Assembly (NCBI GenBank): GCA_000002445.1
Contig: CH464492.1
Span: forward strand, 96,001-160,000
DNA: 64,000 nucleotides
Source of the DNA: Trypanosoma brucei
Taxonomy: Eukaryota
Reading direction: 5' to 3'
In this document: positions 1 to 64,000 of the stretch, one piece after another
Position numbering within the stretch: position 1 is the first letter of the stretch
Layout: every line of letters starts with the position of its first letter
Notes under the pieces: generated by a model
The model's database searches: none
What the model saw: the letters and a program-made list of their open reading frames with translations, nothing else
Told to the model about the DNA's origin: nothing
Position numbers and translations under genes: made by a program

Positions 1-765
1 CGTGGCTTCGACTTGGTCGTCGGCCTGATTTGTTATGCAGAGGTCGGCTTCTCCTGAGTCTGCCCCTTTGCCGCATACGCAAAGGGCGATCGTAATTAGC
101 GCTTCTGCTTTGGCAGATGTCCCTGACGTGCCGCACAGGGCTGTGTGGCTGGCTGCAGCGTTTTTTAGTTTGTTGTTGTCAAGCTTTGTCGCCGCGCTGT
201 CCGGTTGGCCAAAAAGGCCTGTATTTAGGGCTTGTATGATGTTTGCTGGCGTATCCGGGGCTGCATCCTGTGTTAGGCTGTTAAGTTCGACATTTATTGC
301 GGCTGCTTGTTCAGCAACGGGCTGTAGCAACTGCAGATAAAGTTGCTTGTCGGTGCCGCTTGCCCCTCCAAGGCCTGCCCGTTTTTCGATTGCTGCCGCT
401 TTGTTTGGTTCCTCCAGCGCCTCCTCCGCTGCTATCCAGTCTGGCCAGCGCTCTTTTTGAATGGTGTCTTCCCCTTGTTTTGGCGTTGTATACTCCGGCC
501 TGGGTTTGCCTTGCCCTGGCTTGGCGAATTTCTTGCGCCACTCCGCGTCACTTAAAGATGTATTTAGTTGTAGGATGTCTAGATAATCAGTCTTTGCCGT
601 ATAGGTGTCGTCCGGTGTTTGTGATATTCTCGTCGGTGCAGTTAACAGTTCGCACAGGTTGTGAAAAAGATGTGCGTGCTCGCCGGTCGTTGGGCCGGTC
701 GCGGTCCGGGATACTATGAGCAGCATCGCTAAATATGCTGTCGCTTGTTGGAGATAGCCTAGCAT
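1..765 (-). CDS. VSG-A, B-type VSG N-terminal domain, 5' partial gene running off the window. My translation begins MLGYLQQATAYLAMLLIVSRTATGPTTGEHAHLFHNLCELL...LNTSLSDAEWRKKFAKPGQ...ALCVCGKGADSGEADLC
   Basis: Minus-strand ATG at 765-763 with an open frame to the window edge. It is missing from the ORF track because no stop lies within the window. It has a signal peptide and then the same N-terminal motifs (HLFxxLC, LNxSxSxxxW) seen in VSG 28163-29578. Confidence 0.8.
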   Translation of the reverse strand, partial: MLGYLQQATAYLAMLLIVSRTATGPTTGEHAHLFHNLCELLTAPTRISQTPDDTYTAKTDYLDILQLNTSLSDAEWRKKFAKPGQGKPRPEYTTPKQGEDTIQKERWPDWIAAEEALEEPNKAAAIEKRAGLGGASGTDKQLYLQLLQPVAEQAAAINVELNSLTQDAAPDTPANIIQALNTGLFGQPDSAATKLDNNKLKNAAASHTALCGTSGTSAKAEALITIALCVCGKGADSGEADLCITNQADDQVEAT

Positions 766-1634
766 GCTTCACTTTGTTATGGTGCTTCTTTGATTTGAAG
801 GCAGTTAGGTGGTAGAATTAGGGGATACAAGTTTTCTGCTGCTGCTGTTTTGCCTTAGTTATGCTCATTACCTACGCAATAATCCTGTATCATTGTTAGC
901 ACATTTCCTTTATATCAGCCGTTAAATCGAATAAAAATTCTACAAACAATATGAGCTTCCATTTCATAAACTAAATTGTTAACATATACATTCGGTACAA
1001 GATAGGCAGCCACGGCCGCCGCCATCACCAGTGTTTTGCCTGTTCATTTTCGTGTAAAATGTGGTTCTATTTTAAGTCAAATAGAGTATTTTCGAGTGTT
1101 TAATCTTAAGGTTCTCTACGGTTAAGTTTCCTAGCCGCAGAGTCAAGTCGTGATTTATATATTTTTTACCCTTTATTTTGCGAATAATATTCTGATGTTC
1201 TAAAAGACGCTTCTTCCCATCTCTTTCTAAATATTCCCTTAATCAGGAACTTCAATGTTGTTGGTTCTTCCATATGTTCCACTGTCCGGCGAGGGTTGCT
1301 GTCACTTATTGCTTTCCTTTAAACTTACAGATCCAGAAAGATGTAACGGAGATGAAATGTCTATTAGAAATGTCTGCAACATTGGGTCCACATACTTTAT
1401 TAAGTAGGATCATTTCTACTAAATATACCATTTCAGCTATGTTTTCAAGCCAATTTGGGTTTCATATGGGAAAATAGAAAAACTTGCTTTCTATTTAATA
1501 TACTTCCAATTTTCATGAGTGTAGCTTCTAGTGAGTCTCATTATTTTCTTCACTATCTCTTCAGGATGTCACAGTTTTTTGTGCTTTTACTTTTTTGTTT
1601 TGATGTACTTTGGAGTTTAACGCTGCTGGAAACG

Positions 1635-1649
1635 ATAAGCAGCATTGCT
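1635..1649. repeat. Left copy of the 15-bp target-site duplication ATAAGCAGCATTGCT flanking ingi#1
   Basis: An identical 15-mer sits immediately after the ingi poly(A) at 6911-6925. Confidence 0.85.
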
Positions 1650-1657
1650 CCCTGGCG

Positions 1658-4600
1658 ATGCCGGCCACCTCAACGTGGTGCCAGGGTCCAGTACCCCGTA
1701 TCATCGGGGGAAGCCAAGAGCCAGCAGCGTTCCTTTCATGGGGAACAATGCTGTGCTCCGGCTACGGCATCATACAGCACAGGGATCAGCAGCGTCTTGC
1801 TGGGACACCGTCTTTCATTTGTCGGTCCCTGGGCACGTGCCAGCGTGCCATCAGCAGTATCATCCGCACTAAGATGCTGCTGTCCGGTGATGTGGAAGAG
1901 AATCCCGGCCCGTCGTTGCGCGGGATGCAGTGGAACTGCGCCGGGCTATCTCAAGGAAAGAGATTAGCACTCCACAAAACCCTTGTTGATGAGCGGATCG
2001 CCTTTTGTCTGTTGAGCGAGACAAGGATGACGCCTGGAGAGGCGGCTTGCTTTAGCGTTGCTGGCTACCAACATCACGGAATAGCTCGTAACTGCAAAGG
2101 AGGTGGTGTATCAATACTAGTGAGGGAGGACCTACCAGTCGAGACCGGTATGGCCGTTATTGGTCGCATTGAACAAGTGCATGCAACAATTCACCTTGCA
2201 CGTGGAACGGCGCTGACTGTCACGTCGGCATACATCCCACCAAAACACACCTTCACGGCAACTGACCTAGATACGCTTCTGACGACTGACGGTGCCCAGC
2301 TCATCGGTGCAGACGCTAACGCACACGCGTTGGCATGGGATCGCGCGAGCCCACCAAATACCAAGGGTGAAACCCTCACACAGTGGTGCATTGACAACCA
2401 GTTTCTGGTCTGCAACACTGGTGAGTGCACCAGGTACGCGCGCCACCACGGGGAGTCCAGCCCTGATGTGACACTGTGAAGGAATTGCACAGTGTACACG
2501 TGGACATCGCTGTATTCTCCCGATAGCGATCACCATCACATATTTTTCGACGTTATCGTTGGAGACGACACAGATGCACTGAGTTGCCCGCGGCTTCGAA
2601 AGCCCATGTACGCATGGCTAAAAGCTGACTGGAGGAATTTCCGTCTCAAGGTTGACGAGCTCTGCAGGAAAATTGGTAGAGAGAAGAACGTCAACACCAT
2701 GGAACAGAAATTGAGCTCCGCCATCCGCATTGCGACGAAGGTCTCCGTCCCCCGTGGTTGCAGAGCAACGCCACCACATTGGACACCTGAGCTCGCGAAA
2801 CTCGATGAAGAGATCGCTGGATGCGGACCCTCCCACCGAAGGGAAAAGTTGGTAGCCACGCGTAAGCAGATCCTGGACCGTACCACAAAGAAGAGATGGA
2901 GCACGCTATGCTCCAGACTTGCGGTGTCAGACCGCTGCAGTTGGCACATTGTCAAGAAGGTATATGCGCCACGACCACTAACCACACCGGCTGTACTTGT
3001 AGATAACGCGGCCATCACGGACTACCGTCAAGCTGAGAGGTTCAGTAAACTGTACTCGTCCCGCGCAAGAAGGCACCCCGACTCACACCCACCGGCACCA
3101 ATAAAGACGATAGCGAGTGAGTTCAGTCCCATCACGATGGCTGAACTACGGAGATCGATCAAACTGCTACCGAGTGGATCCGCAGCCGGACCTGATTGCT
3201 TATACAACGAGGCACTGCAACATCTCGGCAGAACAGCGCTGAATGTTGTTCTGAGGCTATTCAATGAGAGCCTACGAACGGGAGTCGTGCCGCCTGCATG
3301 GAAGACTGGTGTTATCATCCCCATCCTGAAGGCCGGAAAAAAGGCGGAGGACCTCGATTCTTACAGGCCTGTGACGCTCACGAGCTGTCTCTGCAAAGTC
3401 ATGGAGCGCATAATTGCCGCGAGACTTAGAGACACTGTTGAGTCCCAGCTGACGCCGCAGCAATCAGGCTTTCGCCCCGGATGCTCAACGCTCGAACAAC
3501 TCCTGCACGTCCGCGCTGCCCTCTGCCGTCCCACGCACCAATATCGTACGGGTGCTGTATTCGTTGACTACGAGAAGGCATTTGATACAGTAGACGACGA
3601 CAAAATTGCGAGGGAAATGCACAGAATGAAGGTATCACCCCACATTGTGAAGTGGTGCGTATGATTTCTGAGTAACCGAACTGGCAGAGTGAGATTCAAG
3701 GAGAAGCTTTCCAGAAGCAGAACATTTGAGCGAGGAGTGCCACAAGGAACTGTCCTTGGCCCAATCATGTTCATTATTGTCATGAACTCGTTGAGCCAAC
3801 GCCTTGCAGAGGTGCCGTTACTGCAGCACGGATTCTTTGCAGACGACCTAACGCTACTTGCGAGGCACACAGAGAGGGATGTCATCAACCACACACTACA
3901 ATGCGGTCTAAACGTGGTGTTACAGTGGTCAAAAGAGTACTTCATGTCTGTCAACGTAGCGAAAACAAAGTGCACACTCTTCGGGTGTATAGAGCGCCAC
4001 CCCCTTACATTACAACTGGACGGTGAAAGAATAGGAGCTGACAGGACACCGAAGCTTCTAGGAGTAACATTCCAGTGTCTGCAGGGGATGGCAACACATG
4101 CGGCCGAAACGAGACGCAAGATGGACTTCCGACTACTGCAGATAGCAGCCATCTCAGCTTCTACATGGGGGCCAAGACGACAAGTACTGAGAGCTTTTTA
4201 TCTAGCACTCGTACAGGCACACACCATGTATGGCATTGAGGTATGGTACTGGGACGCTTCGGAACGAAGTCGCGACCTCCTTGCATCAGCACAACACAAA
4301 GCCAGTCGCATCATAGCCGGCATACCGCATGGGACGCGCAAAGAGGACTCTCTGCTGGAAGCAAACCTCCTGCCACTCAAGACGACCACTCTTGTGCGCA
4401 GCATGAAATTCATGCTGATGTGTGAGTCACGAGGCGGATGTTTGCGGCGCAGTGCTGAAGAAGTATACCACAGCAAACACCCAGTCAGAGCCCTACATTC
4501 CCGTATCATGCGGTCCTACCCCCACCTCCGCATTGAGCCACGCGAAAACCCACTAGAGACATCGACGCTCCGCCACAGCTGCCGACCGATATTTCACACG

Positions 4601-6637
4601 CAGATAAAGGCTGTGTGCGCTGATGACCCTGACGATGTCAAAAGGGAGGCTTCCGAAAAGTGGATTGAACGACATTTTGCACGGAGGGGGAAGGAGCCAC
4701 CGCGGCGAGAGCACTACGAATTGTGGACTGATGGATCCGTGTCCCTCGGTGAGAAGTCCGGAGCAGCTGCCCTGCTCTATAGAAACAACACGCTGATTTG
4801 TGCACCTAAGACAGGAGCAGGGGAACTTTCATGCAGTTACAGAGCGGAATGCGTAGCATTAGAGATAGGACTGCAACGGCTGCTGAAATGGCTTCCGGCA
4901 TACAGAACCACACCGAGCAGGTTGTCCATCTTCTCTGACTCGCTGTCAATGTTAACAGCACTGCAGACAGGCCCCCTAGCCGTAACGGACCCAATTCTAA
5001 GACGACTATGGAGGCTTCTGCTTCAAGTTCAGAGAAGGAAGATACGTATCCGACTGCAATTTGTGTTTGGCCATTGTGGCGTGAAACGGAATGAGGTTTG
5101 CGATGACATGGCCAAAAAGGCCGCAGATTTACCACAGTTGCGAGACACATGGATCCCCGACATCATTGCTTATGCGAAGCGAGTGCTTAGGTCGGAAGAA
5201 GTCCATGAGAACACTCATAGGTTTGGTATCACGGGCAACCACTTTCCAACAAAACATAAGGAAGAACTGACGAGGGAAGAAGAAACGGCACTGGCACGCT
5301 TTCGGGTTGGGTCTTCAAGACACTATGGATGGATGTTGCGAAAGATTAACCCGAGTGTGCCTCCACAGTGCCGATGGTGCAACCCGCAACATGCAGAGAT
5401 AGGGCCAACAATACAAACAGCCCCAACTGTTGCGACACGCACTCTTCAAAGAACCTCCGAACCGACCAAATGTACGGAATGTGATGCCACATACCAATGC
5501 CGCTCGAGTGCTGTAACGCATATGGTAAACAAACATGGCTTTGTGCGAGCTGATGCCCTCCGGAGGATCAAATACGGCGATGCAACACCTGCAGTGGATA
5601 TCCCCCCGGAGCCCCCTCCAGTGGTGGCGATCGTTCCTCTACCATCGAGCACACGAGTTACGATGAGACCGCAGGTGCTTCATTGTACCATCTGTGCCTC
5701 CAAATTCGCAATGCCAGGCAGACTACTACACCACCTTAGAACAATACATGGCATAGGCAGCGGTAGTTGCCGCGTGAAAAGGGGGCGAGAGAACGAGGAC
5801 TCAGAGCAAGGAGATGGTAGAGCCCCAGCAGCGCCAGCCTCTCAGGATACACGGAAGCTGCCGTTTCAATGTGACCTGTGCGAGGCGAGCTTCGGTACAC
5901 GTTCTTCCCTGACACTACACAAGAAATTCAAACATAAAAGCATAGTGACGGAGGACGGTACCGTGGTGTTGGTGCAATTCCCTCGTAAGCGTGCCCGTGA
6001 GGGAAACGTTGACGTCCCGGGGAAGGGCGAGGTGCAGTGCGGTGTGTGCCAAAAAGTGCTCAGTTGCAGGGACTCCCTCATCCGACACTGTAAGGCTTTC
6101 CACAAAGGTGAGGGAGTCGAGCTTAAATGCAGCAAAAGCACAAAATTGTGTGCCACTGATTCCCCGCATACAAACACATCCATGTTGGTGTGCCCGACAT
6201 GCGGAAGGCAGTGTGCTAGCAAAACTGGCCTCACCCTACATCAAAAGAAGATGCACGGTATGAAGGTAGAGCGCGCTGTTACCAGCCAACGCGGCGACTG
6301 CGAAGAAACGTCGCTGCACTTGATGAGCTGTCCCGGTTTGAAGGAGTTACGTGTCAGATTTGCGGTAGAAGGTGAGTGTGTGCAGGATGTATGTTTCTCC
6401 AAAAGGCTGGCGCAGTTTCTCATTGCGGTTGAACGGAGCCGGCCGCAGGTGAAGTCCTCACCTAAGGTAACAGTCATACAACCCACTCTCCCTTCTGCAA
6501 CTTCCCCCCTTATTGCCGAGTGTGGAGCCAGCAGGAAAAGCACCGGACGCAGGAATAGTCCAGACACCCTCAGAGACAGAGGAGGTATGCAGTCAACAAG
6601 CAACAAAAACAGAAACAGAAAGAGGGGGAGAGAATAA
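1658..6637 (+). pseudogene. ingi polyprotein ORF (APE-RT-RNaseH-ZnF) split into three frames (1658-2479, 2492-3664, 3689-6637)
   Basis: A TGA at 2477-2479 plus a 2-bp AC insertion relative to ingi#2, and a second frame break near 3664-3689. Canonical ingi has a single ORF of about 1650 aa. Confidence 0.85.
1888..1911 (+). other. 2A-like ribosome-skipping motif DVEENPGP in ingi#1 (LLSGDVEENPGP), just upstream of the AP endonuclease domain
   Basis: This is the exact D(V/I)ExNPGP consensus. The same motif occurs at 43084-43107 in ingi#2 and at 48411-48434 (minus) in ingi#3. Confidence 0.8.
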
Positions 6638-6910
6638 TAAACGAATAACAAAAAACAAAACAAAAGGATTGCTAATTGACATCTTTGGGAGAGTCCGGGG
6701 TGAGGGGGGCTTCTCGCCCCATCTACTGTATTCCGTTCAACTGCGGAGCTACAACAAAAATTATAGAGGGTGTGTTAGGATGAATAAAAAAGGGAGACTC
6801 TGCCACAGTCGCCAGACCGATAGCATCTCAGGGCTCTACGGTGATGGCTGATGGCCGCGCCAGTTGGGAGAAACTCTCACGAAGGCACGAAGAAAATTAA
6901 AAAAAAAAAA

Positions 6911-6925
6911 ATAAGCAGCATTGCT
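6911..6925. repeat. Right copy of the ingi#1 target-site duplication ATAAGCAGCATTGCT
   Basis: Identical to 1635-1649. Confidence 0.85.
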
Positions 6926-7199
6926 TGAAGTAATCAGCAAGGAAAGGACTTTGTACACATTTCCCTATACTCCCTACAGTCACTCTATATTAAAAAGCCT
7001 TATTTTCTAAAATTTAAGTCACAGCATCGAGGAAATATCTACACACTTACCATTGCTTTCAGTAAAAGTTTAGAATGTTACTTTAACGTGTCACTGACTG
7101 AACATTGACTGAATTACAAGTCTTTCGTCAAAATTCCATTCCACTATTTCTATTGATTTAAGTGCTTCTTTTTCCCAGATCATTTAGTCTTCACCACCC

Positions 7200-7615
7200 C
7201 TCTTATTATAAGGTTCGTATACACACTCACAACACTCTCCTGTTATTATCATCATTATTATTATTACTATCATTATTACTGCTCTTATTATAATATTCGT
7301 ATATACACTCTCACTCTCACAACACTCTCCTATTATTATTATTATTATTATTATTATTACTGCCCTTATTATAATATTCGTATATGCATACTCACAACAC
7401 TCTCCTATTATTATTATTATTATTACTGCTCTTATTATAATATTTGTATATACACACTCACAACACTCTCCTATTATTATTATTATTATTACGGATCTTA
7501 TTATAATATTCGTATATACACACTCACAACACTCTCCTATTATTATTATTATTATTACGGATCTTATTATAATATTCGTATATACACACACTCACAACAC
7601 TCTCCTATCATTATC
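7200..7615 (-). repeat. 70-bp-repeat array of about 6 units (82, 81, 66, 66, 66 bp periods), canonical orientation on the minus strand. It is the 5' boundary of the VSG-A cassette.
   Basis: Tandem units CTTATTATAATATTCGTATATACACACTCACAACACTCTCCTATTATTATT..., the reverse complement of the T. brucei 70-bp-repeat core, with variable (ATT)n tracts. Confidence 0.9.
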
Positions 7616-8109
7616 GTTACATCACTATTTTAATGCTAACAAGTATCCATAAGTGACTTAAATAAACAAAATAAAGTAAATTAGAATAACACTAACTTGT
7701 CATACCATTATCCATACTGCTGTTGAACCACACGCTACATTAATACCAAATTGCAAACTTTAAATATTTTGAATTTTTTAGTTATCATGGTGTTCGCGAA
7801 TTTTTATATTTGCATTTAATAGTGTTAAAATATATTAAATCATAGTATATTTAGAAAATTATCTAAAAAAATTTCATAATTATTATAAAATTGAGCAAAA
7901 ATCCTTAGAGTTCTGGAATACTAAAATTCTACCTAAACTACAAATTGTGGTGAGAAAAGAGCAAATTTTCTATTTAAGAGAATGATTGAGTTTTTTAAAG
8001 CATTATTTTTTCTATTTTCAGCCAAGAGCCTTGGCGCAGTCTATTTCTAATTTCCTTTTACTTTTTTTGTAGCTGTTGTCTCTGCTTGCTCCATCTTCTG
8101 CTACCGCAT

Positions 8110-9447
8110 TTAACTGCTCTGAAATTGGTTTTTATCTATTTCGCACTCCCCTTTCCCGCTTTCCCCACCTTTCCATATGCAGTTAGCATCAATACAAGCA
8201 GCTTTGTTGTTTTTGTGTGCGGTGAAAATGGCTTGTTATTTCTGTGGGTTTCCCGCGCCCTTTTGCTCTGTTTGGGCCTGTGCCTGCGACAGGGGTGGGA
8301 CCAGTTTGCCTATAACTGCCGCCTGGTAGACTGCTATTGCTTTTGCGTAAGTTGTTTCTATCGTTGCTGCGTAGAGGCTTTCTTGAGCTTGCTGCAGCGC
8401 TCTTTTTTCAATTGCTACTGCTGCTTGGCGCATCTTGTTGTACCACGGCTGTGTTTCGTGTGTCGTTGTTGATGACTTCTTGAAAAAGTTTGTGTACTCG
8501 ACGCAGGTGTTGCCGGCCGTCCCGGCGCATTCGCTCCCTGTGTTGCTGCTTTTGCCGATCCAGACGCTGTTGTCACTTGCTGCTCCTTGTTGTGTGAGGC
8601 TGCCGTGCCAAGCTTCCAGTGCAGCCGCTATTTCGTGGGGTGTGATGACGTTCTCAGTGTTTAGTGCGCACGAAGCTTTGAGGTCCGCCCATTTTGTTGT
8701 GATCGTCCCCTGATTGTCTATTTCCGCACCGGTAAACGCGCCGCTGCATTCTTTTGCTGCGCCCCCGCTGCCGCCGCGCATACAGAGAAAATCGCCACTG
8801 ATCGACTTTCGCTTGTCGTCGCCGTTGCAGTGGCTTGCCCAGTTGCTGCCCGTACCAAAGCTTGTTGATTGCGTGAGTGCATCTGCTGCCGCTCCGTCTT
8901 CGTATAGTGCTTCACGAAGCAGTTTTTGGATGTTGTTAGTCTCGTCGTTTGTTATAAAGTCCTTGGCTGCCTTCCACTTCTTGCTGATTTCGACTGCTTT
9001 CGCTGTTAACTCCAGGAGGCGATTGTGGGCTGCGAATTGCTGTCGAGCGTCTGCTATTGCTGGGAAGTCTTTGTCTTCCTGTGTTCCAATCTTTTTCTTC
9101 TCCGCCTCCTCTTTGTCTGTTCGCCACGCTCCCCAGGCTGCTGCTCCTCCGAGTGCGCCCGCCTCTTTTTTGCCTTCTGCCGAGAGCTTTTCGTATGCGT
9201 TGCTATTGTTCTTTGAGTTGAACAAAGCGTGCCATTCTTTTGGTGAAGTTGACATGTTGGCTGCTCTTAGTGTTGCTATGTGGGTTTCGATATTTGTTGT
9301 TACGGTCATGTCTGAAAGTTTGCCAGTGGCCGCTTGCAGTAGCCTACACATGGTCCGGTGTTCGCGGGCGTCTTCGTCTGCTGCTCCTTCAGCTGCCCGG
9401 CCCACTATTAGCAGGAAAAGAAGGTGGTTAAATTGTTCTTTCTTCAT
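8110..9447 (-). pseudogene. VSG-B, a B-type VSG with a frameshifted C-terminus
   Basis: The 403-aa ORF (8236-9447) starts MKKEQFNHLLFLLIVGRAAEG and stops before any C-terminal domain. The Cys-rich tail (CIDANCIWKGGESGKGECEIDKNQFQSS) continues in another frame down to the TAA at 8110-8112. Confidence 0.8.
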
Positions 9448-11066
9448 ATCCTTTTTTTCTTGATCCTATGTGGAGAGTTAGAGCAAACACTTCCATTGCA
9501 CGAACTTGCAAGCAACTCGTGGTATTTGTGTTTCCGCGCTGTCAATGTTTCGGAAGTTTATAAGGCAACTTTTTTGCCAGAGTCTTTCTGGTGGCAGCTT
9601 TTGGCCTCCTTTGCTTTCGAAAGATGGTTTTTATACATGTGCGAGACGTCTTTCGCTGATTTCTTTTTGGTCAATTACCGCCTATTTCTACTTTATCGTG
9701 TTCCTCGGTTCCTAAATACCCTCTACGAAAATCTCTATTACTTTATAAAAATTTCCCCAAAGCAAAATCTCCCCCTTTCCCTCTTTTATTTCTATGTTTT
9801 TCTAATTTTCTTTTCTTATCTTTTTTAAATATCCCGTATTCGCCTCTGAGCTACTGCAGAAAAATACACTTTCTTGCTCAATCAGGGGGCTTTAGTCACT
9901 ATTTACCGATACAAAAGTTTTTTCAGTAACTGTGCTGTATATATCACCTATTTTCACGTAAAGATGTTTGTTTTATGTGATAAGGCTGCTGCTGATTGCC
10001 GGCTCATCGCGAATGCTAAGCAAATGCAGCTGCGAGTATACTCTCTAAATTCACCCCAACCACCGCTTCTTAGTTTCTACTGCATTTTCCAGTATATATT
10101 CTATTTTGTGCTTCGGGTTTGCACCAAGCAGCTGAAACACTCTTTATAAGTCTATTCTGTTTCAAACGCAATCTGTACGGCGCCGTCGCCTCCTTATATC
10201 TTTACAATTATTGCTTTTCTTTACTCTTAACGATGCATAGAGGTGTAAGAGGATGAAATGCTACTTGAAAATAGCTGCTTTTTTACTGATTTCCTTCTAC
10301 TAAGATAAATTCAAACTCACTCTTGTATGTACTCTTTTGTTTAGTGTAGTTAAGCTACCATGTAAGTTGTATTTTTCGTACCATTATCTGCTGCATTCCA
10401 TGAATCAATAGAATTATCGCTCGTATCTGGTAAATATTTCCATCCACTTGAGTTTAGCGTCTACTAAGGATCGCCGTTTCTACAGTATTTTTTTACTGCT
10501 CTTATTTCTGACTGTATTTTACTTTTGACGCGTTTTGTTTTGCTTAATGTAGATATTTATGAATTTCGTGTCAGGTTTCATGTGCTTTCGCAAGGTTTTG
10601 TGCAATTGTTAGCTTTTTGGTTTTCTATCACCGCCAGCTTGAGTAGTTAATTCTGTTACAAAACGTATTTTTAGACAAATTGCACGCTCTTTATAAGGTG
10701 TGATCTCTGCTCTTGATACCTTTTTTAAATAAAAGTTCTCTATCCGGAATTAATGCATTCTTTGAATTGGTCTTTAGAACATATTTTCCGTGGTACATTT
10801 AGTATACTTTCACATGTACTGCTTCTTTGTGCTAAATGTAGGAACAGAAATTGACCCTTTCAGTGAATTCTGTATCTCTATAATTATATCCCTTATTCTC
10901 TTCTTTTGTATAATGATGATCTTTGTCGCATTTGTGTTTGAAACTGCACATATTCCATGCCCTCTTCTTTGTCTTCTCTTCATTACCATCCCATTTCCTT
11001 ATTCTCATGGCACACCTTTCACTGTTTTGAGTACCCATATTTTGGATATTCACTTAACTTTAAGTT

Positions 11067-12631: not shown

Positions 12632-12670
12632 GATAGCAAAATTCTTTTTAAAGGGAAGGGGAAAATTCTT

Positions 12671-53215: not shown

Positions 53216-53350
53216 ATTGCTGTTAGTAAAATTTCAAAAATAAACATAATAAAATAAATTAGAATATCATTTGTTTTTCATACCATATTACTATGCAACT
53301 TTACACCGATAACTCACTATGATACAACAACTTACCAAAATTTTAAAATT

Positions 53351-56300
53351 TCCCTGATTTCTGCCAGCCACACCATCGTGGTGCCAGGGTCTATTACTGC
53401 CTCCAGGAGGAAGGCAAGTGCACGCATTATACCTGATCTGACAGGATTTGGGAGTGAAAGAGGCTTTTGGAAACCACAGGAGCAAGAAGCAGAATTGGCA
53501 TTCTGGGATGAAGAAATATATTAGACTGCTCTTCTGCGCGTGCGAGCGCGCCTCGATTAGGATACATAGGCTTCTAATACTAAGCGGAGATGTTGAGCTC
53601 AACCCTGGTCCTCAGATAAGTGGAGCCCAGTAGAATGATGGAGGTCTCTCCCAGACGAAGCGGATCGCCTTAGAGAAGAAGCTTCACGATGATATGGTAG
53701 TCTTCTGTCTATCGCAGGAGACTCACTTGGCAGCAGAATAATATTATGCATTAAAAATCAGTGGATAACAACACATGGGAATGGAAGGCTTTCCACATGG
53801 TGTTGGGGTATCAATTTTTGTCAAAGATAGCACGGGAGTCTTCCAAGGTCCAAAGGAGGAGGAACTGCCGAAAAGAGTCTCGGCAACACTGATGTGTTCA
53901 ACTAATCTAATGTTAACTATAAAGTCAGTTTACTTCCAACAGAAGGAAGATTTCACTACCTCCACGCTTGATAGCCTTAAGAGCTAAACTAGAACACTGG
54001 TGATATGATCCTATACAACGCACATCACGAGTCATGGGACCCGCTTCACTCAAATGATACAGCGGGAGAATGCATTGTAGACTGGTGTCCACAAAATGAT
54101 ATCAAGATTGCAAATGATGGCACCCCAACAAGAATTCCTCACACGGAAGCCATGTCGTTTCCAGACGTTAGGATGTACAGATAATGCGAGGTCACAAGAT
54201 GTGAAGCAAGTCTCAGTTCAGATAGTGGGCACTACTGGATAATATTTGAGGTGTGCATTGGCATTGGTGTAGAAACGACTGCCATTTCAAAGCTACGAAG
54301 GGTACTGTATGCTTGGAATAAAGCAAATTGTCGGGAGTTTAGAAAAGTGTGTGACGTAAGAATGTTTAATAATTAAGGAAGTCTGGAAAGAATGTGGATG
54401 CCATGGCTGAGGCAGTGACTAAAGGCATTCGCACAGCAGCAAAGAAGAAAACAATACCGAATGGTAATGTAGTATCGCCACCGCTGTGAAGGCGAGAACT
54501 AACCAAACTGGACACAAAAATAAGATAGTGTACAAACGAGAAGCACAGATAGGTTCCCCTATATACAAGAGAAGGAAAGCTCTCGATGAAACATCCCTAC
54601 AACGGTGGAAAGAAAATGTGTCAAAGGTGTCGGTGATCAATACAAAAAATTGGAGTGTAGTCAAGTCGGTGTATGCACTAAGATGACTGACATCTCCGGT
54701 TATGGTAGTAAATAGTCACCCTCTAACACGCAGACAGAAAGCTAATAAGCTAGAGCAGATGTATAGAGAGAGCTGTTGACGAAACTATCAGATGCTCCTG
54801 CCATGAGTATACTTTAACCAGGAAGCAGGGAATTTGCACCAATAACGATGGCAGAACTTGAGACAGAACTGAAGGATCTCTCTTCAAGAGCTGCCTCCGG
54901 TAAGGACGATATACATTGCGAACAGTTAAAGCAATTAGGAAGCTACAGCAAGAAATATGTCCTCAAGCTCATTAACTCTAACCTACAGAAACACTGGGTG
55001 CCGGAGAAGTAGAAGCAGTGCGTTATTGTATCACTACTCAAACCCAACAAACCGGCCAAGTGTATGTTATCTTTCCAAACCATCACACTCACTTGCACCA
55101 TCTGTAAACTCATGGAGATGTTTGTAGAGAGAGAAATACGAAACACAGTAGTGTAAGCTGCAACTACAGCAGACTGTTTTCAACCAGGAAAAATCTATAT
55201 TGTCAGACGCCATGAGCACTCACAGAATCCGTGACACATAGGGTACCAAGAGAGAAAACTGCAGAGGTATTCACATATTATGCGAGGGCATTTAACTCTG
55301 TGGATCGCAGGTGCATAATAGGTGCACTAAAAAGATATGAGGTAGACATAAAACTTATTGTGTCGGTTGCAAATTTCCTGGAGGGATGGACTGCAGTAGT
55401 ACGAATAAACAACACCCTCTCAAATAAAATACAACTCACGTGTGGTGTTCCGCAAGGTTGCGTGTTGGGGACGTTGCTATTCATTATCGCAATAGACTCT
55501 CTCAGTGCGAAATTAAACTCCATACGAGCACTTAAACACTGCTTCTTCACGAACGAACTCACGATAGTATGCTCTAACACTGACCTAGAAGCTATTCGGC
55601 AGACGCTACAAACAGGATTAGATTGAATAGCGAGCTGTTCAGGAGAGGACTATATGAATGTGTCTGCGGAAATAACGGAATACACATTATTTGGGGTGAG
55701 ATACAGAGACTCGTTACGCCTATTTCTTGGACAGTACATGTTAAACGAGACGAGAAATCCCAGACTCCTTAGAGTGACAATGCAGCTACACAAGGGAGTA
55801 AGCAGACATGCACACACCCCACAAACAGCACTAAATATGAGATTAATGAAACTACAGGCTGTTGCATCACCCGAAAAGTGTTAAAAGTAAAGAAATTTTC
55901 CGAGTATTTTACTTAGCCTTAATCCTGGAAAAGGTACGCTATGCGATCGCAGCATGGTGGTTCAATGCTTATCCATCAGAGGAGGAGCTTGAACGAGTAC
56001 AAGAGCAGACGGTACATGTTATCGCTGGTATTCCAAAGTACGCGACTCAGTGAAATGTCATGAAGGATGCCCGTCTTCACAAGATAGATGATTTTGGTCA
56101 CATACGAGGAATAGAATACCATTTAATAAGGAGGGCGAACGGTAAATAATCAGCAGATACAGTGGAAAAAAGTTCCCACCCATTCGTCCGATACACACGC
56201 GACTGCAGAGTGTGTCACACTTTTGTGGGGAAGTGCACAGACCGCAGAAAAAACACACACGGTAAGTATATTGCAACTGGCGAGGAGACCGTACTTCAAC

Positions 56301-59000
56301 ACCACAACACCAGGTGGTCTCCATTCTGGCGCTTTCGACAACGAGAAAAAGACATAAAATGCAAAGGGTACGTAGATTCAAAGACTACGATTATCAAGTG
56401 CAGACGGATGAGTCGGTGATACTGAACGAATCCTCTGGCGCCGACCACGATAATATACCCTAGACAATGTAATGCGGTAAAAGTGAAGAAAGGAGCAGCA
56501 AGTCAGCATGCAACTACAGAGCATGGTGTGTAGCCGTGGAGGCAGGACTTATGAAACTTAAGTCAGTAACAAATCTCAAGGAAAGCATAAAAACGAAAGT
56601 GGAAATATTTACAGGCTCGGTATCCTTATTAATGGCACTTAAAAAGGTCCTGAAGTAGTGAGAGATTCGATACTACAAGGCATATGGAACCTGATCCTGC
56701 ACTTCATGAAACCAAAGGTATCCATGTCGTTTCAGTCTGTGTTTTTGCATTGCAGTATCACGACAAATGACAAAGTGAGCTAACTCGCAAACAAAGGAAA
56801 CCACATGCAGCAAACCTACCTTGCATGGATCACCGAAAATGTCACAGGTATAGCGCACCAAATACGGTATCAGTCACAACGCGACTTCAATTTGCGGGAG
56901 GTCGTGGCCCAAACACACATTGCAGTGCTTTACTAAACCATCTAAAACCGACTCCAAAATACAAGGAGATAGATAAGGAAAATGAGTCAATGTCAGCTCA
57001 ATTTAGAAAGGGACCTCAAAACATTTTGGATGATTACATAGGGTGATCACACGAAAGGTTGACAAACTGGTGTGTAGATGGTGTGCAAAACACATGAAAC
57101 ATTTTCAAGAATTACCCTTCTAAAAATTAAAAAAACTGTAAAGATGGAAGAAACTGAGGAAGGCAAGATGGTAATAGCTGCAACACATAATGACCCGATG
57201 ATATTCTTAGTTTGCAACATCATGTGCGCGAGATGACAAACGGGAGTTGTTCACATAATGAAAACAGATCAGTGGGTTTGTCCAAATGCACTAGTTGCAT
57301 TAAAGATGGCGTCAAGAGAATCGCATCTCTATAATGGAGTCTATCGATGTCACGTATGTGGTAAAGTATTCAAACAAAAGGGACTACTACCGCAACACAT
57401 GCCACAGCACGCTCCAACAACTTCAGTAGTATGGACATAGCGACAAAAGAGGAAGCGAGAATACGAAGAACAGTCGTTGCCAACTGTCGGCAAGTGTTAA
57501 TGCTGCCCCAAGCAGTATGCCACGTATGACTTGTTGACTAGGCATATACATCTAAAACATCCTGAAAAGCAAAGCGATGTGACTCAACAAAAGGAAACGC
57601 AGGATGTAAGCATCGAAGATGAACAATGGCAAGCACAACAAGCATACAAATGCCTCCGGTGCAAACAGTTGTACGGAAGCAAAACATGGCTCACCAGGCA
57701 TAAGTGCAATCCGGAGCAGAGTAAGGGGGAACCAAGCACACCACTACAGGAAGCACTGCCGGAGAGAGAAGAATGTAAGGTATACGGTAAAGAGTACCAG
57801 CACAGCTTGATGTTACCCCGTATGAATGCGAAACACCCCTGGAATGATATCTCACTTAGTCCATATCCGATAAAGATAAGCAAATCGACGAAGGAGATAT
57901 CAAAGTCACAATCAAAGGAAGACACTAGTTGCGACAACAAAAATAAGGATGACGATGAAACACCACTTTGTGTTTGCGGCAAATGCAAGAGGGGTTTCAA
58001 AAGCAAGACATAACTAACACGCTTCAAGTGTGTGAGCATAGAAAGAAATGGCACGAAAAGTGAGAATGTGAACAACCACCATAGAGCAGCTAAATAACTA
58101 GATACAACTACCAAAATGGGTCGAAGCCTGGCTCAATAAATAGAGCACTTCTCAACTCAGACTTGTTACACACAATTAAAATTTGAACTTCACGACAAGA
58201 AAGAGAAGAACAGAGACTGAGCATGACACGCTAGCAGATGAGATGGATATGAGAGATCAGAGAGAGGAGCCAAAACACAAATGGCATAAAGCTTAAGGGC
58301 ATACAGATAACCCTTGTAGAGAGTTTGCATGTGAAAGGTGTTAGAACACCTACATGCTCTGCTGTACGCTAGTATGGAATAACAGAACGCACTACAAAAA
58401 TTCAATCACTGTAAAGAGGAAGCACGAAGAAGGATCCCTTGAAATCACGCCACTGGCCCCCCTTGCGCAACAATGCCCACTCTGCTCGAAGGTATGTGCA
58501 CACAACAATATCTAACAATGCACCTCCAAGAAGCACATGGGCAGGCACATAGCTATGATAGGCGAAATAAGCTAAAAGTCAAATGAGAAATTCAAAGAAA
58601 AATCGGTTCACCTGTTGGAGTGTCTGGCTTTCCGTAAACTCAGGTCTGAGCATATAGACAGTCCGAAAGGGGAAAAAATATACTTTAGTGTTAAGGTGGT
58701 GAACTTCTTAAGGGCACTCTTCATTCCGACGGAAATTCAGGCTCCCACTATAGAAGCGAAGAAATCGATAACCCAAAAGAGAATAAAGAAAGAAAGGCCA
58801 CCATCGTGCTAAGTATCCACTGACTATATGCGACACATTCGGATGACAGCCAGTAAGATTTTCCTCAACTGATGGAAAAAAGTATTGAAAGAAGAGCTTT
58901 GTCAACAAGGCACCATTAGCCAGCCCCCACAGGAGAAAGCGAGTAGGGGATCGTGAGGATGGAAAACATATCAACGGAGAAAGTAGACACCAGGGAAGTC
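53351..59000 (+). mobile_element. DIRE: Degenerate ingi-related retroposon (DIRE-like), heavily decayed, with an uncertain 3' boundary
   Basis: The 5' end CCCTGATTTCTGCCAGCCACACCATCGTGGTGCCAGGGTC is a diverged ingi 5' end. LILSGDVELNPGP (2A-like, 53589-53612) is followed by GLSQTKRIALEKKLHDDMVVFCLSQETHL, which parallels the ingi APE start. RT motifs appear at 55231-55626 (YARAFNSVD, GVPQGCVLGTLLF versus ingi YEKAFDTVD, GVPQGTVLGPIMF). C2H2 fingers lie at 57258-58013 and an ingi-like CxxFRKLR motif at 58615-58690. Stops and frameshifts occur throughout. Confidence 0.75.
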
Positions 59001-59175: not shown

Positions 59176-59260
59176 ATTATTATTATTATTATTATTATTA
59201 CTGCTCTCATTATAATATTCGTATATACACACGCAAAACGGACTTTTATAATTATTATTG
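59176..59260 (-). repeat. 70-bp-repeat unit bounding the slot occupied by the DIRE
   Basis: CCATTATTATTATTATTATTATTACTGCTCTCATTATAATATTCGTATATACACACGCAAAACGG. Confidence 0.85.
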
Positions 59261-59519
59261 TAAACATAACTAATATTCATAAAATAATGGAAATGAACAA
59301 AAATATACGTGGAATATCACTCAGTTTATACATTATAGTAACCTACACTTTTTATCAATTTTCCACGATCATACATGTCTTACTAAAATTTCAGATTTGC
59401 ATATTTCGCAATGGTTTTACAACAGTGTTAAAATATCATAACTATTTAAATGTTTTAGCACATCCTATCAGTATAAAAAAGTTTTATACATTTTGTAAAG
59501 TGGAGCAATTGTTAAAATG

Positions 59520-61064
59520 CTAAAGTGCTACAAAACTCACAAAAGCAGAAGCCATCAAAGCGAATTGTTTGTTTAATAGAATAGAGGAATCTTTGCAAGT
59601 TTCGCCCTCCCACTTACAATCCGGAGATTTGCAGTCTTTTTGTTCTTTCCCTGTGCACTTGGAGTCGGTTTTTTTATCTTTCCCTCCTGTTTCTTGGTTA
59701 GCTTTTTCTAGTGCTTGTTTGGCTTCCTTGTTCAATGTGCACTTTTTGTTTGTCTCGCCATTCTCTTTAAATATGCACCCCTGGCCCTTTAACTTATCAC
59801 ATTCTCCTTTGTTGTCTCATGCTTTATTGCATTCTTTCTCCTGATCTTCCGCTGATTTTGTTTCTTTATTTTGCTTTGCATCGGTCAGCTCCTGTTTTAA
59901 TTTCTCTTTATCTTTGATGAGTGCTATGTTTAATGTTGCCAGAATGGCCTCCAACTGCCCAGTGGACATTGCATTGAGTGCTGTTTCTTTATCTGTTCCC
60001 GCGATTTTGTCTTTGAGTTTGTAGTTTGCTGCGTCACTTAGTAGCTTGTCTACCGTGTCTTTGCTGGTTGCACCGAAAAGGTTTGTTATTGCTGCTTTAC
60101 TGTTTGCTATTGTGCCGTCGTCTACATTTTTTATAATTCTTGCTATTGTCTTTGCTGCTCTTTCCGTTGATTCTAACTTGTCCGAAGTATTCGTGTAGTC
60201 TTCGTCACTAATTTTAGGTAGTGCGCCCACTGTCGTTATCACAGCCTGCCATGCTGTAGCTTCGGTTCGGTCTGTTAGTGTCGGTCTGTTCAGGTTTAGT
60301 AGGTTGACTTTGCCGTCGTTACTGCCTGTGTCTATCTCGATGTAGCCGGCCGCATAGTGTAGTTTTGCCGCATCGACGTCTCCAGCCTTGCCCAGGCCGT
60401 CGGCGTTGCTCTTTGCGAACAGTCGGCAATTTTTGTTTGCTGATTGTAGGCTGTTGCTGTTGTCTAGTCCCGCTTGTGTGCCGGCGATGCCGCCTGCTGT
60501 TATAGTCTTTTTTGCCCTCCCGTTGCCCGCTGTCTGTGGCACCCCGGTTTTGCATTCTGTACCGTCTATCGTCGTCCCTGCGAAATTGTGGGCGTTGGTG
60601 TCATCCCCGTGTAAGCAGCCATGGTCGGTGCCTTCCTTTGTCTGTGCCGCCACCGTCATAAACTCGTCGATCGCTCCTTTAGCGTAGCTCGTCGCCGCAA
60701 CTGCTGCTAGAAATTTGTCACCGTCTATGCTGTGCAGTTTTGCGAGCGCCTGTTCTTCCATTGATGCTACATAAGCCGCTAAAACGATGCTCCTTTCAGC
60801 CACTGCTGCTGTTGGCGCAACCCTGCTGTAGACTTTGAGCTGCAGAGCTTCTTTTCTAAAGTCAAGCGCCAGTTTTAGGATGCGCTTCTGCTCTGTTGCC
60901 GCTTCGGAGGTTACCTCTCCCAGCTCTTTTGCTAAGTTACACAATGGAACCCAAGTTTCTTTTTTCAGTCCCATGTTGTCCGCGCCTTCCGTGGAGGTTG
61001 TTGTGAGCAAAACGGCAAGTATTACTGATGCCGCAGGCTGTTTACTGCAGCTCATGGGTTTCAT
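59520..61064 (-). pseudogene. VSG-O, an A-type VSG with a frameshift between the N-terminal domain and an intact C-terminal domain plus GPI signal
   Basis: ORF 59817-61064 starts MKPMSCSKQPAASVILAVLLTTTSTEGAD...WVPLCNLAKELG. ORF 59520-59735, in another frame, reads ...[45 protein letters not shown]. Confidence 0.8.
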
Positions 61065-62391
61065 TTTTTGGTTCCGACTCCACTGCTTTTGAAAGCCGTA
61101 GCCGTGGCTGTTTTGCCTTCAGATGACAACTTAGCTTGTTATTTAGTTTTTAACCGTTTTCCTTTCAGATACCTTTCAACGAGGTTAATATTGAACAAAC
61201 GCTTAAACAACCAACTTTGTCTACTATACACAAAACAAAAAAAACAGATAAGGTTAAAGAAAGACAATTACCTATATTTTTCGACAGCATTCCAATGTGT
61301 TTCAAAACTAGATACGTAAGTCCGAATAACCACAAAAAGGACTCATTTGGACATATATTGTGCTTTCTTGAACTCGTACTCTTAAAGGTATATTTCCCAA
61401 ATTTAGGGTTTTTGAACCTGTTTGTCTCCACTTCCAATAAAGTGTTTTTTCTCCACAGATAAAACCGCAAAACGGTATTTTCAATTAATTTCGTATTTGT
61501 AGAGATACATAACAGACACGTTAGAGCATGTAAATTATCACTCTATTTTATTGTGTTTTTCATATGCTAAACTTGCGTAAACTTCAATTTCACTATAGAA
61601 GGCCATGGCCACAATGAAAAAAATTTTTAAGGTGAATTTTGTTTTTCGAAAAGTTTACCCTTTTACATCTTAATCTATATCGCTATATATTTCTATTTAT
61701 TACTTCTATCATTTAAGACCGTTGTGTGCTACTGATGCGCTTCCACTACTGTTGGTGTGAGGCATCTGCAATGGCGATATAGCGTTGATACTTCTGTCAT
61801 ACGCGTGGTTTCAGGCAGTCAGCGCTGTTATACGGCTGTATTGTTAGTCACTTTAGCATCTTGATCGATAATAGCTGTATTCACAAAATTATTTTGTTTA
61901 AAATTTGCCGGTATGCACCATCTAAACTGCTATGGTGTGTGTTTTCACATGAATCATCTGTTCATTGAATCGGCGTAACGGTTTTAGTGTTTTGTCTTTA
62001 AAGCAATGTTGTTCTAGTGGAGTATAACGAACCATTCTGTAAATAAAAGACTCTTCTGTTTTCCCATGGGCGTTTTTTAAACTCGTGTTGGTCTTTTTTG
62101 ACATGCTCCTTAGTCAGCTGCGAATACTGCATTTATTGTCGATTTTTTATATGAAAATACAACTACATTCGCCTTGTATGATGAACTCAGTTCCTTAATG
62201 ACTTCCATCTACTTCTCGTGTATACTGACATCCGTATCCTTTATTGTGTTTGAAATAGCGAATATTCCATCTCTCTCTCATTAAATTTTTTACAAACTCA
62301 CCTACTCACTGCGATTTCACCCTTTCCTGTGTTTTAACTGCTTTGAACACGGTATTTTTACTCGGTTATCGTTGGTACTGTTCTTACCACT

Positions 62392-62433
62392 CTTATGATA
62401 ATATTAGTATACATACACACTCACAACACTCTC

Positions 62434-62471
<38 letters not shown>

Positions 62472-62575
62472 GTTATTATTATTGTTATTATTATTGTTAT
62501 TATTATTGCTATTACTGCTCTCATTATTATATTCGTATATACACACTCACAACACACACCTACCATTATTATTGT
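62392..62575 (-). repeat. 70-bp repeats (2 cores) with a greatly expanded (ATT)12-(ATTATTATTGTT)3 tract, upstream of VSG-O
   Basis: Cores ATAATATTAGTATACATACACACTCACAACACTCTCGT and CTCTCATTATTATATTCGTATATACACACTCACAACACACACC are separated by about 100 bp of triplet repeat. Confidence 0.9.
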
Positions 62576-63281
62576 CAGCTTTAATATTCAGGTTTTCATC
62601 CATCACTATTTTATTTTTGATATTTTCTTTCCAACATCTTTTTCAAGTAACAAGGTCGATTTTAAATATAATAAACATCAATGGTTGGAGAATCTTTGAT
62701 TTGCTTTGACCGTACAGATGCGCAAAGTTCAAAAGGTTTCAGAAAGGTGTTGGTGAAGTTTAACCATATTTTTTTATTACTGAATTATTTCTCTAAAATG
62801 CTTTTTTTCTTTTGTATTGCACTTACATCAAAAACCAATTGGGCAGCGCTTTGAAGGCAGTGAAGTGGCGTATGGGAATATTTGCGTATTGGTGGTTCTT
62901 TAATGTATGAGGGTTACGTTCCAAAAGGTGATGGAAAAAAGTAACATATGCATGTGTGTTCAATAATAATAATTAAATGCCAAGTTCTCTTACTTTCTGT
63001 ATCAAACAGTGAGTGTGTTTTCTAATGTCATTTTTTCAAATGCGTATCGAGGTTTAGGAGGCACAATGTTGCTTAAAACTCAACTCTCACGAGAATGACA
63101 CAAATTAAGGGAAGCTTCTATCGCAGCCACCATTTCCATGTGTGCAACAGTAAGCGAGTCATCGTAACAATTTTTTTTGCGCGTGTGAAGTGTGAAATCC
63201 TCATGAGAACTCAAGATTTACCACAATAATACTCATTATGCAAGGTGCTTTGAGTGGAGAAGGTGGCGCAGACTCAAATAT

Positions 63282-63381
63282 NNNNNNNNNNNNNNNNNNN
63301 NNNNNNNNNNNNNNNNNNNNNNNNNNNNNNNNNNNNNNNNNNNNNNNNNNNNNNNNNNNNNNNNNNNNNNNNNNNNNNNNN
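63282..63381. other. Assembly gap (100 N)
   Basis: A run of exactly 100 N characters, the conventional unknown-size gap placeholder. Confidence 0.99.
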
Positions 63382-64000
63382 TAGCGCCAAAACTATTTTT
63401 TTTAATGGCCACAAAATGCTGCAGGAAAGCAGTGTGGAAATAATTTCATTGGATAGAAAAGTGTGTGAGGAAAGTTTATTAAAATTATTTGAGATTTATA
63501 ACTGTTCTATCTGAGTAACCATGTGCGTGCTTTAGTACAGGAATACCTTTGTAATAAAGCTTTTGTATCCTTTACAAAGAAACACTAAGAAGCCGAATTA
63601 GTTATAAAAGTAAAGCAAATATTTTAATCAAGAACAATACTCAACATTTTGCTTCAGGACAAAAAAACACTTATTCTGGGAGAAAAGCGTCTGAGGGAAC
63701 GTGAAGCAAGAGGTGATCACGTTTTCAGTTTATATGGCTCCGTATGCAATGCAAAGTGAAGTCACGTTATAATGGACAACGAAACTCAACTGCTCGGGAT
63801 GGAGTTTGTTGATGGAACGCGTGGTGATGATGTAATGTGGAAGGATGAAGAACTTAATGTTGTCCCTGAAATTGAGGAAACTGTGGAGAAGAAACCAGAG
63901 TCCAGGGAAGCAGTTGAAGCAATGGTTCTAACATCTCAAATGGGGTGATAATAACCCAAGTTTACCGACGGGTGTGGCGAAAACATATTCATCTGTAGAG

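Follow-up and report, generated by a model that had tools for sequence, protein, structure and literature searches.

Antigenic variation in Trypanosoma brucei draws on silent variant surface glycoprotein (VSG) units, which act as gene-conversion donors. Reports said to treat the subtelomeric silent arrays of strain TREU927 are those of Berriman et al. (2005), on the genome, and of Marcello & Barry (2007), on the VSG archive. The genome strain holds about 1600 VSGs in subtelomeric tandem arrays, only 4.5% of them intact (PMC1868767). Among array VSGs, two in three are pseudogenes, which are used for mosaics (PMC3467770, PMC3708902), and array VSGs are adjoined by 70-bp repeats (PMC4858185). The retroposon ingi, described in Kimmel et al. 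1987 as cited in PMC3820030, has a 12-bp target-site duplication, and the degenerate ingi-related elements (DIREs) measure about 5 kb (PMC3820030).

Here we describe a 64-kb stretch of DNA (hereafter the window), which is almost certainly a row of silent VSG cassettes, most of them damaged and all pointing the same way, with retroposons, in the T. b. brucei TREU927 reference genome. The region is ordinary and already known, since it belongs to a published, annotated reference genome and has the textbook layout of a VSG archive. It shares with the silent VSG arrays of TREU927 (VSGdb, PMC1868767) identical proteins, head-to-tail units, short 70-bp elements and conserved 3' ends. The pseudogene majority, the atypical genes, the fragments and the interspersed ingi and DIRE elements likewise agree with those arrays, from which the window does not differ in any substantial way. 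Bloodstream expression sites (PMC2567434, PMC4858185) also place 70-bp repeats before the VSG and a 3'UTR with the 16-mer after it, but their promoter, ESAGs, long tract of 70-bp repeats, lone VSG and neighbouring telomere have no counterpart in the window.

RESULTS

Origin of the window

In a protein search, five ORFs of the window showed full-length, 100% identity to EAN78987-EAN78991 (XP_828099-XP_828103), whose database name is 'variant surface glycoprotein (VSG), putative [T. b. brucei TREU927]'. The five EAN accessions are numbered consecutively, and they occur in the same order in the window and on a single 286,308-bp TREU927 record. These best protein matches bear out the T. brucei origin proposed in an earlier, sequence-only reading of this DNA. 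The remaining VSG matches were to VSGs of T. brucei Lister 427 and EATRO1125, at 43-96% identity.

Orientation and layout of the array

A tblastn search with 45 VSG proteins, comprising the window ORFs and database VSGs, returned 18 segments, all in minus frames and none in plus frames, as expected from the earlier claim that every unit lies on the minus strand. The VSG units total 16, all on that strand: 13 have an N-terminal domain (U1, U2, U4-U11 and U13-U15) and three are C-terminal fragments (U3, U12 and a remnant at 42600-42760). With one slot that holds a DIRE only, the sum is 17, in agreement with the approximate number of slots counted before.

The order of elements is a short 70-bp element, a spacer, the VSG, a 3'UTR with the 16-mer, a conserved flank of about 170 bp and then the next 70-bp repeat. 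Within the units, the VSG is made up of a signal peptide, an A- or B-type N-terminal domain, a C-terminal domain and a GPI signal. Spacers of 0.8-2.1 kb separate the 70-bp repeat and the ATG of the VSG, matching the upstream spacer of 0.8-2 kb reported earlier. The spacers resemble each other in weak patches only, all in the same orientation, and 10 spacer ORFs, taken from both strands, gave no meaningful Pfam match. The VSG 3'-flank block, of about 200 bp, was found by nhmmer in 13 copies, all on the minus strand; one of the 13, that in the DIRE slot, was absent from the training of the profile.

The 70-bp-repeat profile gave 23 nhmmer matches, all on the minus strand. The sequence-only reading had placed such a repeat before each unit; we found 15 sites, all on the minus strand, and none belonging to U3 or U11. 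Eleven of the 15 sites are strong and four are weak (E 8e-5 to 0.095), and each element comprises 1-6 units (TRF, nhmmer). The longest consists of six tandem copies upstream of U1, on the far side of the first ingi (7181..7619; TRF period 66, 95% matches; nhmmer E 1e-16 to 1e-18). Upstream of U6 there are two copies (21351..21509; TRF; nhmmer E~4e-17), as there are upstream of U15, where they have a long TAA tract (62370..62574; nhmmer E~1e-16 to 1e-18; TRF). A full and a partial unit stand at the head of the slot occupied by the second ingi (49681..49779; E=1.4e-15), and the repeat upstream of U12 and U11 also has a long TAA tract (39178..39253; E=3.3e-17; TRF). Single repeats lie upstream of U2 (11050..11121; E=7.6e-13), U4 (15004..15076; E=3.6e-15), U8 (27747..27823; E=7.5e-14), U9 (31296..31362; E=8.6e-11) and U13 (42344..42417; E=4.2e-12), and at the head of the DIRE slot (59185..59260; E=1.5e-13). 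The weak sites are degenerate repeats upstream of U5 (18694..18755; E=8.4e-5) and U10 (34513..34580; E=0.0027), a remnant upstream of U7 (25247..25274; E=0.003) and a very degenerate repeat inside the DIRE slot (53147-53188; E=0.095).

The 16-mer, previously assigned to three 3'UTRs, is present, but its exact form TGATATATTTTAACAC occurs only twice (12616-12631 and 39424-39439). Near-copies have one mismatch at 7822 and at 49925 and two at 18933, and further degenerate copies are also present, each copy being downstream of a VSG. We regard the copies as real because only 0.06 would be expected by chance.

VSG units and their damage

Every VSG unit carries damage, be it a stop, a frameshift or the loss of its stop, and in none is there a canonical complete VSG frame. 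Six ORFs reach at least 470 aa (U4, U6, U8, U9, U11 and U14), to be set against 12 full-length units and U1, which the edge of the window truncates; five of these six are annotated CDS. The former count of only four near-full-length ORFs among 14 has to be revised to this extent. Nor do the others all require two or more frames, as had been stated, given that U5, U10, U13, U14 and U15 are each a single frame with one stop. Several of the annotated VSG CDS terminate only within the 16-mer of the 3'UTR or have no GPI signal.

Profiles for the VSG N- and C-terminal domains, on which the sequence-only reading had staked its VSG assignment, all found matches (PF13206, PF00913 and PF10659). The B-type profile PF13206 matched five units (U1, U2, U8, U9 and U11), the A-type profile PF00913 three (U7, U14 and U15), and the C-terminal profile PF10659 six at or above its cut-off (U3, U9, U11, U13, U14 and U15). 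The five N-terminal-domain units that escape both PF13206 and PF00913 match VSGsur or database VSGs; among them, U4, U6 and U13, Pfam-negative in this domain, match the solved structure VSGsur (phmmer, E 1e-10 to 1e-16).

Among the B-type units, all on the minus strand, U1 (1..765; PF13206 E=3.8e-32, profile positions 2-226 of 352; tblastn) is an N-terminal part with its ATG at 765, which leaves the window at the left edge. U2 (7822..9447; PF13206 E=2.5e-47) is a pseudogene whose N-terminal domain forms a 403-aa ORF, with stops and frameshifts in the C-terminal domain and a one-mismatch 16-mer at 7822-7837. U8 (25350..26940; PF13206 E=8.7e-81) encodes 487 aa and is a 100% match to EAN78989. 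U9 (28009..29578; PF13206 E=1e-74), with 471 aa and an exact match to EAN78990, meets a premature stop ahead of the GPI signal, which lies in a different frame. U11 (34800..36396; PF13206 E=2.3e-60; PF10659 30 bits), a 491-aa ORF without a spacer of its own, also has a premature stop ahead of the GPI signal, followed by a frameshift; nr contains its sequence, but no TREU927 CDS for it.

The A-type units are on the minus strand as well. In the pseudogene U7 (21600..23131), two ORFs share the PF00913 match (profile positions 1-75 and 117-367); there is a frameshift near 22802, and the C-terminal domain is degenerate. In U14 (49925..51534; PF00913 E=1e-84; tail PF10659 29 bits), with 472 aa and an exact match to EAN78991, the C-terminal domain is interrupted by a premature stop, the GPI tail is aberrant and a one-mismatch 16-mer lies at 49925-49940. 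The pseudogene U15 (59425..61064; PF00913 E=5.6e-64; PF10659 85 bits) is one frame that, apart from a single in-frame stop at 59817-59819, is complete, including the GPI signal.

The VSGsur-like units, again on the minus strand, show comparable lesions. The ORF of the A-like U4 (12616..14202; 527 aa; exact match to EAN78987; PDB VSGsur E=4e-10) ends at a TAA within the exact 16-mer at 12616-12631, because of a frameshift in the GPI signal. U6 (18933..20502; 518 aa; 100% full-length match to EAN78988; PDB VSGsur E=1e-15) is undamaged in its interior, but its usual stop is gone, so that the ORF continues for another 25 codons and stops at the TGA in the two-mismatch 16-mer. The pseudogenes U5 (15208..16776; tblastn, phmmer to VSGs) and U10 (31549..33093; tblastn with U6, aa 4-500, E=1e-25; phmmer) each consist of one frame, with in-frame stops at 16342-16344 and 32392-32394, respectively. 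The pseudogene U13 (39424..40967; PDB VSGsur E=2e-16; translations) has an in-frame stop 35 codons past the ATG, and its ORF continues through the 3'UTR into the exact 16-mer.

Three units, likewise on the minus strand, are 3' fragments. In U3 (11321..11950; PF10659 76 bits; translation), which sits directly behind U4, a C-terminal domain is followed by a GPI signal that has its own stop. U12 (36650..37290; tblastn 36654-37286; translation) retains the end of an N-terminal domain, the C-terminal domain and the GPI signal, interrupted by several in-frame stops, and lies 240 bp upstream of the U11 ATG. The remnant at 42600..42760 preserves the last ~45 codons; phmmer matches it to the C-terminus of U4, and its PF10659 score of 17 bits is below cut-off. 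It adjoins the second ingi, the rest of the gene is missing, and a 3'-flank block is located at 42419-42629.

Retroposons in the array

The three retroposons recognized earlier are present, namely ingi 1 at 1650-6911, ingi 2 at 42845-48089 and a DIRE at 53353 to about 58774. All three are long, LINE-like elements on the plus strand, antisense to the VSG array. While ingi 1 is a clean insertion into a spacer, ingi 2 and the DIRE occupy the places of lost VSGs. Both ingi copies are about 5.2 kb long, with the conserved 5' signature, an ORF encoding endonuclease, RT, RNase H and zinc-finger domains, and poly(A).

The full-length non-LTR retroposon ingi 1 (1650..6911; endonuclease, RT, RNase H and C2H2 domains) lies between U1 and the 70-bp repeats of that unit. 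It has a single frame of ~1661 codons with two in-frame stops and a terminal poly(A), and a direct repeat, TAAGCAGCATTGCT, flanks it at 1636-1649 and 6912-6925. At 5.26 kb, it resembles the published ingi in its 5' signature, domains and poly(A); its direct repeat reads as 14 bp, as against a target-site duplication of 12 bp in the literature (PMC3820030).

The second copy, ingi 2 (42845..48089), is also full-length, as judged from self-BLAST (96.4% identity to ingi 1), its domains and the tblastn frames; it has several frameshifts and a poly(A) tail. In contrast to the ingi of the literature (PMC3820030), it has no target-site duplication in direct orientation, and its poly(A) is fused to an inverted ingi fragment. 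A 16/17 copy of its 5' flank is found inverted, 850 bp downstream. The inverted 582-bp fragment, which directly abuts the poly(A), corresponds to element positions 1-582 (48090..48670, minus strand; self-BLAST 96.4%; minus-strand endonuclease domain) and constitutes a fourth retroposon piece, missing from the sequence-only reading. The 268-bp piece that follows, at 48671-48937, has no match elsewhere in the window.

We considered how this junction might have arisen. Neither twin priming nor a recombination of inverted ingi copies reproduces the observed order of the flank copies, and both were rejected by reasoning. A real rearrangement covering 42828-48954 can be put forward only tentatively, and we consider it rather doubtful: a retroposon-associated 865-bp inversion, together with a deletion, would have removed a nearly whole VSG, leaving the target-site duplication behind as an inverted copy. 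Alternatively, the complex may be a local misassembly of the Sanger-era reference, in which case the poly(A) would be followed directly by TTACCATGCATTATATT.

The DIRE (53353..58774, plus strand; tblastn, PF00078, 5' signature) is about 5.5 kb long, with its 3' limit somewhere between 58.8 and 59.1 kb. Its start at 53353 is marked by a Pr77-like signature, CCCTG...GTGGTGCCAGGGTC, and its protein identity to ingi is 25-40%, spread over many frames and frameshifts. The size of about 5 kb, the degeneracy and the ingi-type 5' signature agree with published DIREs (PMC3820030). At its 5' end lies a truncated VSG 3'-flank block (53200-53360, minus strand; nhmmer E=5e-14, model positions 71-226). Judged by its sequence, this block, together with the degenerate 70-bp repeat (53147..53360 overall), can be identified as the sole remains of a VSG slot filled by the DIRE. 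The idea that the DIRE merely splits the 70-bp tract of U14 was rejected on account of the truncated block.

Surroundings of the units

Pfam scans of ORFs in the 64-kb window found no ESAG-like or housekeeping domains, and no telomere repeats are contained in the window. Scans for tRNA genes and Rfam RNAs detected none in it. To the right of 62574 there is neither a VSG nor a 3'-flank block, and then an assembly gap of 100 N follows (63282..63381, unstranded).

DISCUSSION

Our analysis supports, from the sequence, the core of the earlier reading, namely a silent, cassette-like VSG array of mostly pseudogenes with interspersed retroposons. Nothing that we found contradicts the array reading, and the assignment of its source rests on the protein matches.

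The location of the array within the genome has to be weighed against other possibilities. VSG/ESAG islands have been described in T. brucei chromosome cores (PMC2854126), and the chromosomal location is not visible from the window alone; the window could accordingly be a chromosome-internal VSG island instead of a subtelomeric array. However, the sole example of stated size is a segmental insertion of eight VSG genes (PMC2854126), whereas the window has 17 slots in 64 kb and no other gene, and is part of a 286-kb record, making an internal island very unlikely. Still less probable is an array of the same type that belongs to a different T. brucei-group member (Lister 427, T. b. gambiense, T. 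evansi or T. equiperdum). Related VSGs do exist in Lister 427, EATRO1125 and T. equiperdum, but they are 26-96% identical, as compared with 100% for the five consecutive TREU927 accessions in the same order. Another rival, in which a VSG also follows 70-bp repeats, is an expression site (bloodstream or metacyclic) or a VSG locus on a minichromosome. It is already refuted by the anatomy of the window and has a negligible probability, with no telomere repeats in the window, no ESAG-like domains in the ORFs scanned, 70-bp elements of 1-6 units instead of long tracts, and 16 VSG units in a row as against the single telomere-proximal VSG of an expression site (PMC4858185).

For the preferred reading, a silent TREU927 array, the literature suggests a role. 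The array lacks a promoter of its own and is silent in place. Its units would serve as donors, which gene conversion copies into an expression site at a telomere, with upstream homology provided by the 70-bp repeat and downstream homology by the region of the C-terminal domain and 3'UTR. Damaged copies could contribute segments to mosaic VSGs.

The region may also be hemizygous, judging from the literature; hemizygosity of T. brucei subtelomeres was reportedly found by Callejas et al. in 2006. The subtelomeric position itself is suggested by the description of the TREU927 VSG tandem arrays as subtelomeric (PMC1868767).

To conclude, our work adds corrected counts to a known region. The number of canonically intact units is zero, compared with 4.5% genome-wide in TREU927 (PMC1868767). 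Moreover, if the rearrangement at ingi 2 is real, it would provide a concrete case of retroposons driving the loss of VSGs from the array.

Results

Our searches place the window in the published TREU927 reference genome, because five of its ORFs match, exactly and in the same order, five consecutively numbered proteins of a single 286,308-bp record. By exact look-up, these minus-strand ORFs, named by VSG units numbered U1 to U15 along the window, are U4 (12619-14202; EAN78987), U6 (18946-20502; EAN78988), U8 (25477-26940; EAN78989), U9 (28163-29578; EAN78990) and U14 (50116-51534; EAN78991). Protein searches also returned 100% identity to annotated proteins for the 518-aa minus-strand ORF at 18946-20502 and the ORF at 25477-27075, and the remaining, lower-identity matches were to VSGs from Lister 427, EATRO1125 and T. 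equiperdum.

Pfam assigned a VSG_B N-terminal domain (PF13206) to U1, U2, U8, U9 and U11, and an A-type domain (PF00913) to U7, U14 and U15, while the C-terminal domain (PF10659) reached the cut-off in U3, U9, U11, U13, U14 and U15. The Pfam N-terminal domain search had no match in five units, U4, U5, U6, U10 and U13. Among these, U4, U6 and U13 resemble VSGsur, the sequence of a solved structure, over most of their length (E values of 1e-10 to 1e-16), and U5 and U10 resemble U6, U13 and database VSGs. An N-terminal domain is present in 13 units, counting U1, which is truncated at the window edge. Together with three 3' fragments, U3 (11321-11950), U12 (36650-37290) and a roughly 45-codon remnant (42600-42760), all on the minus strand, and one slot occupied by a degenerate ingi-related element (DIRE), they give a total of 17 cassette positions, in agreement with the roughly 17 proposed by the sequence-only reading. 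That reading also put every VSG-like unit on the minus strand, and a tblastn of the window with 45 VSG proteins yielded 18 VSG segments, every one in a minus frame, with no plus-strand match. U3 and U12 lack a 70-bp repeat of their own (11321-12615 and 36411-37290). U3 comes directly behind U4, and only 240 bp separate the end of U12 from the ATG of U11 downstream, which leaves U11 without a normal spacer.

No canonical VSG, running from signal peptide through GPI signal to a normal stop, was found among the window units. A single frame with one premature stop characterizes U5, U10, U13, U14 and U15, and frameshifts affect U2, U4 (within the GPI signal), U7, U8, U9 and U11. The interior of U6 is undamaged; its stop is lost, and reading continues 25 codons into the 3'UTR. 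In the long ORFs of U4, U6 and U13, where the normal stop is lost or the frame shifted in the GPI signal, the stop is encountered only within the conserved 3'UTR 16-mer or a variant of it (12616-12631, 18933-18948 and 39424-39439). U4 and U6 are annotated as protein-coding in TREU927 despite a stop codon supplied by this motif. All five annotated ORFs (U4, U6, U8, U9 and U14) are recorded as CDS although they are non-canonical.

A profile trained on clear copies of the 70-bp repeat and run over the window detected 23 repeat units, every one on the minus strand, distributed over 15 sites, of which 11 are strong and four weak (18694, 25247, 34513 and 53147). More than one full unit occurs at only three of the 15 sites (six, two and two copies), and the distance from repeat to ATG is 0.8-2.1 kb for each VSG. 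The three copies of the 16-mer given in the sequence-only reading reduce to two exact ones (12616 and 39424). Further copies carry one mismatch (7822 and 49925) or two (18933), and still weaker ones lie downstream of other VSGs. In nearly every slot, a stretch of conserved sequence about 170 bp long connects the 16-mer with the following 70-bp repeat. A profile that also covered the 16-mer found 13 copies of this block, each of them on the minus strand (for example 7621-7859, 39249-39470 and 59252-59474), and recovered the copy at 53200-53360, which had been kept out of profile building. Homology therefore extends without a break from the 3' end of a VSG through the block and on into the next 70-bp repeat. 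Similarity between spacers is limited to weak patches, always in the same orientation.

The window carries three long retroposons, ingi 1 (1650-6911), ingi 2 (42845-48089) and the DIRE (53353 to about 58774), each on the plus strand and antisense to all 16 VSG units. Ingi 1 has endonuclease, RT, RNase H and zinc-finger domains, about 1661 codons in one frame with two stops, and a terminal poly(A). It lies in the spacer separating U1 from its six 70-bp repeats and harms no VSG. The direct repeat on both of its sides (1636-1649 and 6912-6925), TAAGCAGCATTGCT, reads 14 bp, whereas ingi is reported with 12 bp (PMC3820030); chance may account for the two additional matching bases.

The third element, which extends from 53353 to about 58.8 kb, opens with the conserved 5' signature and shows 25-40% protein identity to ingi, spread over many frames, which identifies it as a DIRE (PMC3820030). 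It is bounded by a 70-bp repeat (59185-59260) and, directly at its 5' end, by a truncated 3'-flank block with a degenerate 70-bp repeat (53147-53360). Since cassette flanks enclose it on both sides, the VSG of this slot has been lost.

Ingi 2 is frameshifted and 96.4% identical to ingi 1. No target-site duplication was found at its flanks, and its slot retains only the last 45 or so codons of the VSG. Its poly(A) is directly followed by the 5' part of an ingi in inverted orientation (48090-48670; element positions 1-582), and the 5' flank of ingi 2 recurs as an inverted 16/17 copy at 48938-48954, 850 bp downstream. With the main repeats set aside, just 0.87% of 14-mers occur again anywhere in the window, so this copy is probably not due to chance. 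Inverting 48090-48954 on paper recreates a normal duplication. The complex at 42828-48954 reflects either a real inversion with deletion or a local misassembly.

The window contains no telomere repeats, tRNA genes or Rfam RNAs, and no ESAG-like or housekeeping domains were found among the ORFs scanned. From 62574 rightward to a 100-N assembly gap (63282-63381), there is no VSG 3' end and no 3'-flank block. Cassette features end beyond the last 70-bp repeat, and 62575-64000, which includes the gap, contains no VSG-like sequence.

Discussion

The window represents an already known array of silent VSGs in the TREU927 reference genome; the identity to TREU927 VSG proteins and the VSG domains bear out the interpretation first made from the sequence. 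The observations given with that interpretation need correction, among other points in the number of exact 16-mers and in the presence of a 70-bp repeat before every unit. The subtelomeric position of the array is inferred from the literature (PMC1868767, PMC3467770, PMC3708902, PMC4858185), and the hemizygosity proposed in the sequence-only reading is putative. Previous work classed 4.5% of VSG genes as intact, the others being atypical genes, pseudogenes and fragments (PMC1868767; also PMC3467770), and the gene damage observed here fits this picture.

According to published work, the units of the array would be donors that gene conversion copies into an expression site, with the 70-bp repeats providing the upstream homology and the 3' coding and UTR region the downstream homology. 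VSG pseudogenes are reported to feed mosaic VSGs (PMC1868767, PMC3467770, PMC3708902, PMC4858185), and those of the window may likewise be sources of mosaic VSGs.
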